Virus record (IMG/VR): IMGVR_UViG_3300029959_000004
Location: 1-64,000 of that record
Length of the DNA stretch: 64,000 bases
Direction: 5' to 3' (one strand)
Origin: a virus
In this document: in pieces, positions 40,376 through 48,632 of the stretch
How positions within the stretch are numbered: position 1 is the stretch's first letter
Layout of the letters: every line of letters begins with the position of its first letter
Notes under the pieces: generated by a model
Told to the model about the DNA's origin: nothing
What the model saw: only the letters and a program-made list of their open reading frames with translations
The model's database searches: none
Translations under genes and position numbers: made by a program

Positions 40376-40501
40376 AATCTGACTAAAAAGGTGACTAACT
40401 ACCAATTTTTAGTTCTTATCGTGCTTTATATCAACTGATGTTGATAAAGGCGAGCAGAACCTTTTTAGTTTCGTTAGATTTTCACTAACTCTTCAGAGAT
40501 T
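40376..40501 (-). ncRNA. Hammerhead ribozyme, type I, with large insertion in stem III; predicted cleavage after GUC (40381/40380)
   Basis: AAUCU-CUGAAGA-GUUAG(UGAAAAU)CUAAC-GAAA-CUAAAAAGGU...ACCUUUUUAG-UC-AGAUU: complete core and three stems. Confidence 0.88.
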
Positions 40502-41406: not shown

Positions 41407-41742
41407 TTAAAACCAAAATATAGGTCTATATATCGCATTTGGTAAACATCTTTGCATATTCTTTGCACCTATTGGATTACAACTATGTATTATTATTTTA
41501 CAGGTTAGATTTTTATCTTCAAGATATTTAGCTACCTGATAACCCGTATTTTCATCGTTTGAGTTGACAAATATTCTATTTCCTAAATCGTGATCTAAAC
41601 ATATTAAATCCCAATTTAAATCTCTTTTTAGAATATTAATAGCGTCTTTAGCTGTTTTGACAAATGTTATATTATGCCCAACATATTTTCTAGAGAAAGA
41701 ATCGTGTCTTGTTTGCATATCGTCAAGAAATAGAATTTTCAT
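41407..41742 (-). CDS. Cyclic-phosphate-processing receiver-domain protein (RNA-repair associated)
   Basis: ILFLDD.R, ICLDHDLG, TGYQVA and IIHSCNPIGAKNM are the signature motifs of this receiver subfamily. Confidence 0.8.
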   Translation of the reverse strand: MKILFLDDMQTRHDSFSRKYVGHNITFVKTAKDAINILKRDLNWDLICLDHDLGNRIFVNSNDENTGYQVAKYLEDKNLTCKIIIHSCNPIGAKNMQRCLPNAIYRPIFWF

Positions 41743-44721: not shown

Positions 44722-46968
44722 TTAATCTCCTTTAATTACAGCCAAAGGGCTTAATTCCACAAGTATTTCTACTAAATCCGACTGATTTTTCATAACATCT
44801 TCAATTTTCTTATACGCTCCAGAAGCCTCTTCTAAATTATTTACATTTCTAATACCGTGAATAATTCCTTGATCGTCCAATATCTTAATTTCTTCTTTTA
44901 GATTTAATTGACGACAAGCCTCTTTTCTTCCCATAACTCTACCTGCACCGTGAGAACAACTTTCAAAGCTTTCTTTGTTTCCTAAACCTTTAACTATATA
45001 AGACTTAGTTCCTTGAGATCCCGGTATTATACCTATTGTTCCTTCACGAGCTAATGTTGCTCCTTTTCTATGTACTATTACATTCTCTCCAAAGTGATTT
45101 TCCCATATTGCGTAATTATGTGCTATATTTATTGTTGCTTTACCGCAACCGGTTTCTTGATTGTTTATGTCTTTTAGATAGAATCCTTCATCGTTAAATT
45201 CTTTGTTAAATATCTCTACTATATTACTCATCATTAAAAACCTATTAGCTAAAGCAAAATCCACACAATACTGCATTTCCAACATATAGTCTTTAGCTTC
45301 CTGAGTTTCTATAGGTAAGAAAGCCAATTCACATTCTTTAGGAACATAAACATACCACTTACCGTTTAGGTTCTTTGCTAACTCATTATAATAGTTAGCT
45401 ACTTTATATCCTAAGTTCCGACTTCCTGAATGTATCATAATCCAGATATTATTCTCGGTATCTTTTTGAATCTCAATAAAATGATTTCCCCCTCCTAAAG
45501 TACCGATTTGTTTTAACGCGTTGAAATATTCTTTTTTAATAACATTATAGTTTTCTAACATATCTCTAATTGTTTCTGCTTTAATTGGCATTAAATTTTC
45601 ATCTTGTCTTTCTTTATGACTTCCGTCACGCCCGTTTCCAACAGGAATAACTTCTCTAATCTTTCCCATTATCTTCTTTAAAGTTTCTCTATCTAATTGT
45701 TCTGATTTTAAAGAAGTCTTAACCGCACACATACCGCAATTATGAACAAATACCCCAGAAGATAAGGCAAAATTATGATATTTATCAATAGTTAAACAAT
45801 AAACATCTTCTTTTTTATTTATTAGTTTAATTGAAATAATTTTATGATTTTTTCTATTTTTATTCCAATAAGCTCCAAAACCATATTTTTTACCAATTTC
45901 AGAAGATTTGACTCTTCCTTTTTCAGATTTGTTATATTGAATTAAAAATTTCTTTCCTCTTTCTCCAGCTAATTTAGCTTGTTCTTTAAATTTTTCAGTT
46001 TTTGAATAATTAATCCAATTTTGTATTGCGTTCTTTTTTACAATTTCTTGGAAATCTTTTCTTTGATGTAATTTTCTCATATTTTCTGATGCCATTTTAG
46101 AAAATAAAATGGGATTATTCTTTCTTGCTATTTTAAATCCAACGATACCTAATTTAGAGTTTTTACCAACATTTTTATAATGTATTTCCCAATGTTTTTT
46201 CCAATTAACTCGTTTTATGTTTGTAGGGTTATTGTTATATTTATTAAAATCTATATGGTGTCTAACTCCTTTAGTTTTTTTATAAATACCATTTAATATA
46301 TTAAACTCATCTGCTAAAATATGAATATAGCGATACTTATTATTCTTAGGATTATAAATTACATTATAATCTTTCATTTTTTCTTTTTTAAATTGATGCT
46401 CAAATTCAATATCTTCCACTTCAAATGCTTTATTAATGTAAATTGGCATTAACGATTGTCCAATTTTTAATTTTTTCGCTCTAATTTCTTTATTTTCTCT
46501 ATCATAAAATATATGATCTTTAGTGCATTTAATTATTTCATTATTATCCAATTTTATTTCTAAAAGTTCGTTGGCAATTCGTGTTTTTCTGGGACTATTA
46601 ATTTTTGATATAACAATATTTGATTCTTTATCCAGAGAGTAACAAAAATTTTCTTTACCTCTATTATATTCTTTAATTAATTCTAAAAATGATAAATCTC
46701 TTCCATCAGTTAATTTAACTTTTGTATCACCAGTAAAACATCCAATATCAACACCTACTGCATTAGGTATTACTACTTTCTTAGTAGCTAATACTCCACC
46801 AATAGGCATACCAAATCCTTGATGACAGTCCGGCATTACCGCTATGTGTTTGAAAGCGAATGGTAAATTGGATAAATTAACCAATTGTTTCACAGCTCCG
46901 TCTTCTATCTCATCTAACCACATCTTTATTGGAACTTTTTGTTTATCTGTATCATATATTACTTTCAT
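44722..46968 (-). CDS. rtcB: RtcB RNA ligase (2',3'-cyclic phosphate/3'-P to 5'-OH) with intein
   Basis: MPDCHQG, PIGGV, VGVDIG|CGM, GTLGGGNHFIE, HSGSR, HNY, VHRKGAT, IPGS, SHGAGR and EASGAYK motifs. Confidence 0.96.
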   Translation of the reverse strand: MKVIYDTDKQKVPIKMWLDEIEDGAVKQLVNLSNLPFAFKHIAVMPDCHQGFGMPIGGVLATKKVVIPNAVGVDIGCFTGDTKVKLTDGRDLSFLELIKEYNRGKENFCYSLDKESNIVISKINSPRKTRIANELLEIKLDNNEIIKCTKDHIFYDRENKEIRAKKLKIGQSLMPIYINKAFEVEDIEFEHQFKKEKMKDYNVIYNPKNNKYRYIHILADEFNILNGIYKKTKGVRHHIDFNKYNNNPTNIKRVNWKKHWEIHYKNVGKNSKLGIVGFKIARKNNPILFSKMASENMRKLHQRKDFQEIVKKNAIQNWINYSKTEKFKEQAKLAGERGKKFLIQYNKSEKGRVKSSEIGKKYGFGAYWNKNRKNHKIISIKLINKKEDVYCLTIDKYHNFALSSGVFVHNCGMCAVKTSLKSEQLDRETLKKIMGKIREVIPVGNGRDGSHKERQDENLMPIKAETIRDMLENYNVIKKEYFNALKQIGTLGGGNHFIEIQKDTENNIWIMIHSGSRNLGYKVANYYNELAKNLNGKWYVYVPKECELAFLPIETQEAKDYMLEMQYCVDFALANRFLMMSNIVEIFNKEFNDEGFYLKDINNQETGCGKATINIAHNYAIWENHFGENVIVHRKGATLAREGTIGIIPGSQGTKSYIVKGLGNKESFESCSHGAGRVMGRKEACRQLNLKEEIKILDDQGIIHGIRNVNNLEEASGAYKKIEDVMKNQSDLVEILVELSPLAVIKGD
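45739..46740 (-). mobile_element. Intein (334 aa) with HNH endonuclease in rtcB, inserted before the active-site Cys
   Basis: Starts CFTGDT; CTKDH; RHHIDFNKYNNNPTN; ends GVFVHN followed by Cys. Confidence 0.92.
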
Positions 46969-47248
46969 TTTATATTCTCCTCTTTAGATTAGTTTTTAGA
47001 ATCTTGATGTGAAATTCTATATTCCCAATTCCACCAATCTTCTATAGTTCCTACATAAAATGTACCTTTTCTTTCTACAAAACACAGCCACGCTTTAACT
47101 TCTCTTTTATCTTTTGTAATATCTACAACTATAGGAAACCAAGCAAACCACTTGTGCCATTCTTCAAGTTTTTTTATTTCTTTATCTTTAATTTCTTTTT
47201 TCAATCTTACTATATTTTCTTTTGTATAACCATTAGTCCAAATCATCT

Positions 47249-47310
47249 ATTCTCCTTTCGGGCTTATTTAATGCCCTCATCAGTTAATGAATTACATTAA
47301 GAGGAACAAT
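47249..47310 (-). ncRNA. Hammerhead ribozyme, type III; predicted cleavage after CUC (47301/47300)
   Basis: UUCC-UC-UUAAUG(UAAUU)CAUUAA-CUGAUGA-GGGC(AUUAAAUAA)GCCC-GAAA-GGAG; loops I and II are complementary (UAAU/AUUA). Confidence 0.92.
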
Positions 47311-47850
47311 CTAAGTAGTAGATTTTTTAGAAATAACTCTCCATTGTCAATAGACCGCCAACAAAAAACACAAAACCTAAAAATAACCAACACAAAATAA
47401 CTATTTCTCGTCTTTCTATTCCATAACAACCACGAAACACACTATCTATATCTCCCAAAGTATGATCCATCTCTTGACCGCTTATTTGATACATAGCTTG
47501 TTGATATTCAAGAGATTTTTCTTTCATTCTAGAAGTTGTTTCTAGTCTGCTTATTAAAGTATCTAATATCTTTAATTGAGTAGATTTAGTCATTCTTTCC
47601 GTTTTAAAGATATAGTTAGCATGTTCTTCGCTAATATTACTAACTTTTTCTCTGTATTCCTTAAAATACATCAGTTTATCTTTAGCTGTTGAAGCGTCAT
47701 CCGCTAATTTTAAGAACTGTTTATATTTTACCTCGTAGTTATATGCAATATCAACTCCGAGAATTGTTCCTAAAACAAAAAACAATATTGCAAGACCAAA
47801 TAATAGAAATTTCATTCTTATCTCCTTTTTTGGTCTACTACTTAGATTGT
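47306..47850. repeat. Perfect 17-bp inverted repeat (47306-47322 / 47834-47850) bracketing one gene
   Basis: acaatctaagtagtaga and its reverse complement tctactacttagattgt. Confidence 0.9.
47327..47815 (-). CDS. Membrane protein with two terminal TM helices
   Basis: Hydrophobic N- and C-terminal segments; flanked by a 17-bp inverted repeat. Confidence 0.7.
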   Translation of the reverse strand: MKFLLFGLAILFFVLGTILGVDIAYNYEVKYKQFLKLADDASTAKDKLMYFKEYREKVSNISEEHANYIFKTERMTKSTQLKILDTLISRLETTSRMKEKSLEYQQAMYQISGQEMDHTLGDIDSVFRGCYGIERREIVILCWLFLGFVFFVGGLLTMESYF

Positions 47851-48572: not shown

Positions 48573-48632
48573 GGTCTCATTCAGTTTTGTATTAAACAAA
48601 AGACGGAGATAATGTAACTCTCCGTTTCGACC
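48573..48632 (-). ncRNA. Hammerhead ribozyme, type II, core with a 1-nt insertion (CUGAAUGA); predicted cleavage after GUC (48602/48601)
   Basis: GGUC-GAAA-CGGAGA(GUUACAUUA)UCUCCG-UC-UUUUGU(UUAAU)ACAAAA-CUGAAUGA-GACC; loop I UUAAU can pair with the 3' tail AUUAA. Confidence 0.82.

Follow-up and report, generated by a model that had tools for sequence, protein, structure and literature searches.

A probable type III hammerhead ribozyme in a phage genome carries the Shine-Dalgarno sequence of the next gene in its stem III

Hammerhead ribozymes are already known from phages and prophages. In prophages, triple hammerhead arrangements cut polycistronic RNAs (Perreault et al., 2011; PMC3088659), and the HHphage hammerhead of HF1/HF2 is located 13 nt upstream of a start codon (PMC3088659). 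It was suggested that bacterial and phage hammerheads process polycistronic transcripts into RNAs differing in stability or in translation efficiency (PMC6765202). In Escherichia coli, synthetic devices have been designed in which the Shine-Dalgarno (SD) sequence is hidden in a hammerhead stem, and the cut switches translation on (PMC7445771). Finally, fungal and plant RNA viruses carry hammerheads in their 5' untranslated regions (5' UTRs), and initiation of translation is reported to depend on the cleavage of these ribozymes (bioRxiv 10.1101/2024.05.16.594327).

Here, we describe a candidate type III hammerhead at positions 47249-47310 (minus strand) of a 64-kb stretch of viral DNA, hereafter the window, which makes up the first 64 kb of a record of 109,385 bp having direct terminal repeats and a GC content of 30.6%. 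The locus resembles the phage and prophage hammerheads described previously (PMC3088659) by its canonical core and three-way junction, by its location in a gap of a polycistronic transcript, by the presence of several ribozymes per operon, and by the proximity of a start codon. It differs from them because the ATG is found 2 nt past the ribozyme and the 3' strand of stem III is itself the SD sequence. In addition, the three ribozymes of the present phage display three topologies, and the Rfam models give no score to the type III one. As in synthetic ribosome-binding-site (RBS) devices and aptazymes (PMC7445771), the SD sequence is part of a ribozyme helix and the masking strand would be removed by the predicted cut. 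However, the synthetic devices use an extended stem I on a type I scaffold, usually with an aptamer as input, whereas the natural case uses stem III of a type III ribozyme, with about 5 + 3 base pairs of masking and no recognisable ligand-sensing part. The RNA-virus 5' UTR hammerheads also correspond to a viral hammerhead placed just upstream of an open reading frame (ORF), with a tie between cleavage and translation that is proposed in the present case, but they are eukaryotic and cap-independent and involve no SD masking, whereas the present one belongs to a DNA phage. In the literature searched, which left most subscription journals outside, no natural hammerhead with a stem III corresponding to an SD sequence was described. 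The ribozyme at 47249-47310 is new as a member of the phage hammerheads, and an earlier description of an SD sequence in stem III may exist.

The motif is read on the minus strand, which also carries the genes of the surrounding region. It begins with a pyrimidine-rich, anti-SD-like strand (47310-47302, with U16.1 at 47302), which forms the 5' side of stem III and is followed by C17 (47301); the cut is predicted between 47301 and 47300. Stem I comprises 6 bp (47300-47295 with 47289-47284) and is capped by a 5-nt loop (47294-47290). The CUGAUGA core (C3-A9, 47283-47277) precedes stem II, made of 4 bp (47276-47273 with 47263-47260), closed by the G10.1-C11.1 pair and carrying a 9-nt loop. The GAAA core (47259-47256) then leads into the 3' strand of stem III (47256-47249), which contains a GGAG at 47255-47252. 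These elements were assigned by reading the sequence, and stems I and II as well as the 5' strand of stem III are also outlined by the descriptor presented below. Stem III consists of 5 bp, a bulged G, and then three A-U pairs. All the conserved core positions of a hammerhead are canonical, including G12-A14, the A15.1-U16.1 pair, and a base other than G at position 17. The topology is that of type III, with loops capping stems I and II while stem III is open. Fast cleavage of hammerheads in cells requires a tertiary contact of loop 1 with loop 2; by eye, loop 1 could pair over 4 nt with the beginning of loop 2, but this complementarity is all A-U and easily due to chance. The sequence that partners the 5' strand of stem I is present in an identical copy within stem II and loop 2 (47260-47300), which offers this strand a second pairing. 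Folding of the cleaved 3' product predicts this second pairing, which would disrupt the ribozyme after the cut.

The hammerhead is housed in an 80-nt gap between the stop codon (47329-47327) of ORF 47327-47815 and the ATG of ORF 46989-47246. Two bases separate the 3' end of the ribozyme (47249) from this ATG, at 47246. The GGAG is 5 nt upstream of the ATG, and such motifs are mostly found 5-8 nt before the start codons of this phage, so that GGAG 47255-47252 is a credible SD sequence. In the hammerhead, it pairs with 47306-47303, located 5' of the predicted cut. An earlier note on this DNA had proposed a type III hammerhead at this place and had identified the 3' strand of its stem III as the ribosome-binding site of ORF 46989-47246; the complete set of core bases, the three helices, the descriptor and covariance-model matches, and the position of the GGAG with an ATG 2 nt beyond the ribozyme bear out both proposals. 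A promoter-like site is observed at 47322-47350 (minus strand), with a perfect TTGACA, a 17-nt spacer, and a weak -10 element (score of 10/12); it ends about 12 nt upstream of the hammerhead. Promoter-like sites show no enrichment across the region. If this site functioned as a promoter, only a very short 5' leader would be left for the ribozyme to remove.

The gene served by the embedded SD sequence (46989-47246, minus strand) encodes a protein of 85 amino acids. Pfam and PHROG searches assigned it to no family, the ESM Atlas gave no usable lead, and within a large protein collection the protein matched only itself. Two distant viral relatives were found, neither of them associated with a hammerhead. 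The protein has a tryptophan-rich motif in common with an ORF of a viral contig of 59% GC (L002, 2986-3213, plus strand), which argues that the 85-aa ORF is a real gene. The two proteins represent a small phage protein family in which the tryptophan-rich motif is conserved between a phage of 31% GC and one of 59% GC. As the earlier note had stated, this ORF directly precedes rtcB. The latter gene (44722-46968, minus strand) contains an intein (Pfam RtcB, 3.4e-106; Intein_splicing, 1.1e-17; PHROG tRNA splicing ligase) and would come second on the RNA beginning at the type III cut. The Intein_splicing and Hint domains cover approximately residues 75-410 of its product, and matches to the RtcB extein flank them on both sides. 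A 111-aa cREC_REC protein (cyclic-phosphate processing receiver; domain match 9.5e-20) is encoded at 41407-41742, on the minus strand and in the same inter-hammerhead segment as rtcB. The presence of the two genes on one such segment argues that the phage carries an RNA-repair toolkit.

Two further hammerheads accompany the type III one. At 48573-48632 (minus strand), a type II hammerhead-like motif was found with a descriptor allowing an 8-nt core. Its core is lengthened by a base inserted between A6 and G8, its stems measure 6, 4, and 7 bp, and the cut is predicted after 48602. It starts right after a stop codon, and an SD sequence starts 4 nt past its 3' end. At 40376-40501 (minus strand), the strict descriptor detected a canonical type I hammerhead with a CUGAAGA core, an 11-bp stem III closed by a 66-nt loop, and a predicted cut after 40381. 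This one begins 1 nt past a stop codon; about 14 nt downstream come an SD sequence and then a GTG start codon. The three hammerheads, of types II, III, and I, are all intergenic and are found on the coding strand of a run of small genes, within a distance of 8.3 kb. The start of each is separated from a stop codon by 0-16 nt, and each is associated with an SD sequence on its downstream side: 4 nt past the ribozyme for type II, inside stem III for type III, and about 14 nt past the ribozyme for type I. The ends of the inter-hammerhead segments have no unusual complementarity that would favour circularisation.

How far the motif departs from chance was evaluated by several routes. The strict descriptor required an exact core and uninterrupted stems of at least 4, 3, and 4 bp, in any of the three topologies. 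Run on both strands of the whole 109-kb genome, it gave only two matches, the type III hammerhead (47252-47306, stems of 6, 4, and 5 bp) and the type I hammerhead (40376-40501), both on the coding strand. In 1500 dinucleotide shuffles of the genome, the descriptor gave 0.147 hits per genome, type III hits occurring at 0.03 per genome; when stems of at least 5, 4, and 5 bp were required, the rate over all types fell to 0.007 per genome, and none of the 1500 produced a type III hit whose stems matched the 6, 4, and 5 bp of the phage motif. A covariance model, R1, was also built from a set of type III hammerheads of other viral contigs (43 distinct sequences), retrieved with a pattern that fixed only the core and a common stem II. 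In the R1 alignment, 97% of the cells in stems I and III are paired and the covariation score is 0.60 vs. 0.16 after shuffling. Used on both strands of the window, R1 gave a single match, at 47252-47306, full length, with 25 bits and an E-value of 3.5e-5.

The Rfam models RF00008, RF00163, and RF02276 did not match the type III motif, whether at the gathering score, at E<=10 over 271 nt, or in a profile search of genomes, and they were equally silent on the two companion hammerheads. A profile search of genomes with R1 returned nothing, which is read as a limit of the first-look step of that search; therefore, the null results of the Rfam models obtained by the same route carry less weight. 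When the isolated RNA is folded, the structure of minimum free energy differs from the hammerhead, which lies 1.2-1.3 kcal/mol above it, and the z-score is -0.52. Searches of a phage collection with blastn and viral scans, including one for the same stem II, retrieved no homologue of the type III ribozyme, so that the 47249-47310 locus has no covariation of its own. Taken from its sequence, 47249-47310 is very probably a true hammerhead.

The position of hammerheads with respect to genes was surveyed in other viruses. An ORF of at least 40 codons starts within 60 nt of 41 of the 47 unique viral type III hammerheads, mostly 19-25 nt away. In many viral type II hammerheads, GAAAGGAG and an ATG immediately follow the ribozyme; the first broad viral scan, using the core plus GAAAGGAG, mostly gave type II hammerheads followed by an SD sequence, not type III ones. 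Among matches sharing the stem II sequence of the window, 29/31 are true type I or type III hammerheads, several of them with an SD sequence about 5-10 nt downstream. Phage hammerheads are normally placed just upstream of a gene, and in phages that use SD sequences the SD comes about 5-10 nt past the ribozyme. On a viral contig of 87 kb (L122, 888-1403, plus strand), about 400 nt separate a type II hammerhead, with a CUGACGA core, from a type III hammerhead, and the two flank a stretch without obvious ORF.

An SD sequence inside stem III is a different matter. It was found in none of the 47 unique viral type III hammerheads, a sample that is unbiased for stem III, and a dozen further hammerheads provided one case of partial overlap (L525). 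A UCCU/AGGA stem III pattern was then scanned over viral, metagenome, and genome contigs. In the loci examined, it gave 256 matches, 50 of which pass the type III descriptor. Several unrelated UCCU/AGGA hammerheads have a start codon 4-8 nt past the GGA, together with a solid ORF. Such cases precede a gene for a small phage membrane protein (L124), a GT2 glycosyltransferase gene (L194), and an ORF (L371), and the arrangement is repeated as a family in Woesearchaeota and Pacearchaeota metagenome-assembled genomes (MAGs). In unique matches to GAAAGGA, a downstream start codon with an ORF was observed for 8/36 true hammerheads vs. 37/182 non-hammerheads. The architecture recurs but is rare, and it displays no enrichment that would indicate selection.

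The repeated family consists of a near-identical type III hammerhead present in L157, L186, L205, L255, L270, L279, L294, L303, L313, L322, L341, L345 (two copies), and L382, which come from Woesearchaeota and Pacearchaeota MAGs and from metagenomes. The ATG is always 6-8 nt downstream, the first few codons are similar, and the ORFs then diverge. Judging from the sequences, this repeated hammerhead looks like a portable ribozyme-plus-start module. The literature search yielded no paper containing both "hammerhead" and "Woesearchaeota".

The explanation that we favour, and hold to be probable, is that of a genuine hammerhead acting in a one-way maturation step that couples the cut to ribosome loading. 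From the motif, its statistics, and its placement, we infer self-cleavage, release of the product, and an effect on translation according to the following scheme. The polycistronic transcript would most likely be cut after C47301, creating the 5'-OH end of an RNA that contains the 85-aa gene, rtcB, and later genes. The stem I hairpin (47284-47300) would stand at the start of this downstream RNA. The upstream product of a hammerhead ends in a 2',3'-cyclic phosphate, and both a 5'-OH and a terminal hairpin tend to protect RNA in bacterial mRNA decay. Because the SD sequence is the 3' strand of stem III, it would be paired as such only in the folded, uncut precursor. The masking strand (47310-47302) would stay on the upstream fragment after the cut and, because this strand is 5' of the cleavage site, cleavage would free the SD sequence as the short stem III helix falls apart. 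The stem III duplex has a predicted free energy of -4.8 kcal/mol only, which suggests that the products should part quickly and not await a ligase. AGGAG has a predicted probability of being unpaired of 0.2-0.38 in the uncut RNA, depending on the length folded, which rises to about 0.65 in the 3' product. In the competing structure of minimum free energy, the SD sequence and the AUG also pair with the same upstream stretch. The ribozyme fold and 30S binding would be mutually exclusive at any moment because both need the same five bases.

The cut would be irreversible, and efficient translation of the 85-aa gene, perhaps also the stability of the rtcB message, would be tied to processing. No aptamer-like part and no other regulatory input were found in the region of the type III hammerhead, which makes a constitutive, one-way maturation more likely than an on/off switch. 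The earlier note had envisaged translation switched by cleavage. The unmasking part of this idea is retained, in view of the predicted rise in AGGAG accessibility upon cutting; the reversible switch is not. A 5-bp helix may also hinder ribosomes little.

This last point leads to the main competing explanation, according to which the hammerhead is real and only processes the transcript, the overlap with the SD sequence being an incidental result of genome compaction; ribosomes would melt the weak stem III, or cleavage would be too fast for masking to matter. The free energy of the stem III duplex is consistent with this explanation, and a GAAA followed by a purine-rich strand resembles an SD sequence by nature. 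Furthermore, start codons are not enriched after true hammerheads compared with non-hammerhead GAAAGGA matches, so the overlap may be mere compaction, and in the two other hammerheads of the phage, as in most of those of other phages, the SD sequence lies outside the ribozyme. However, the same architecture occurs in unrelated ribozymes ahead of well-defined genes (L124, L194, L371, and the archaeal MAG family), and masking of the SD sequence is predicted in the hammerhead fold and in the competing fold alike. We regard incidental overlap as a serious possibility, though an unlikely one. Even the existence of a ribozyme may be questioned: the motif could be a chance match to the consensus, with an upstream pyrimidine-rich stretch that pairs with the SD sequence as an ordinary translational attenuator or that is simply inert. 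The silence of the Rfam models, the unremarkable thermodynamic z-score, the AT-rich stems in a genome of 31% GC, and the absence of locus-specific covariation all go in this direction. They have to be set against the shuffled genomes (0/1500 with a type III hit as good), the independent covariance model (E-value of 3.5e-5), and the two further hammerheads in equivalent positions on the same strand, and they leave a chance match improbable.

The proximity of rtcB raises the question of a ligase. RtcB joins 2',3'-cyclic phosphate and 5'-OH ends, that is, the very ends of hammerhead products (PMC7824862), and the RNA segment starting at the type III cut carries both rtcB and the cREC_REC gene. 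The earlier note had proposed a possible feedback loop on the rtcB operon in which the cut turns translation on and re-ligation by the phage RtcB turns it off. Comparison with other phages speaks against this proposal. At 17 rtcB loci of other phages, covering about 165 kb together, no hammerhead was found upstream of rtcB, and a single hammerhead was detected in total, on the opposite strand. RtcB is present in 1/50 hammerhead-bearing viral records vs. 1/49 records without a descriptor-detected hammerhead. Since other phages show no co-occurrence of hammerheads with RtcB, RtcB feedback is not supported. Products held by a helix of about -4.8 kcal/mol should, moreover, separate fast, and phage RtcB is usually read as repairing tRNAs cleaved by host nucleases (PMC7824862). 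The feedback loop is the least probable of the readings considered here. It is likewise very doubtful that the phage RtcB and cREC naturally act on the hammerhead-made ends, a 2',3'-cyclic phosphate on the anti-SD fragment and a 5'-OH on the rtcB message, with re-sealing or end-healing feeding back on translation of their own operon. If this were true, RtcB and cREC acting on hammerhead ends would constitute a ribozyme-ligase expression circuit.

Returning to one-way maturation coupled to ribosome loading, a type III hammerhead that masks an SD sequence would be the natural counterpart of the engineered RBS-masking design. More generally, the survey indicates that phage hammerheads of all three topologies adjoin the translation start signals of the next gene. 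A stem III that is also a ribosome-binding site makes the processing idea simply testable.
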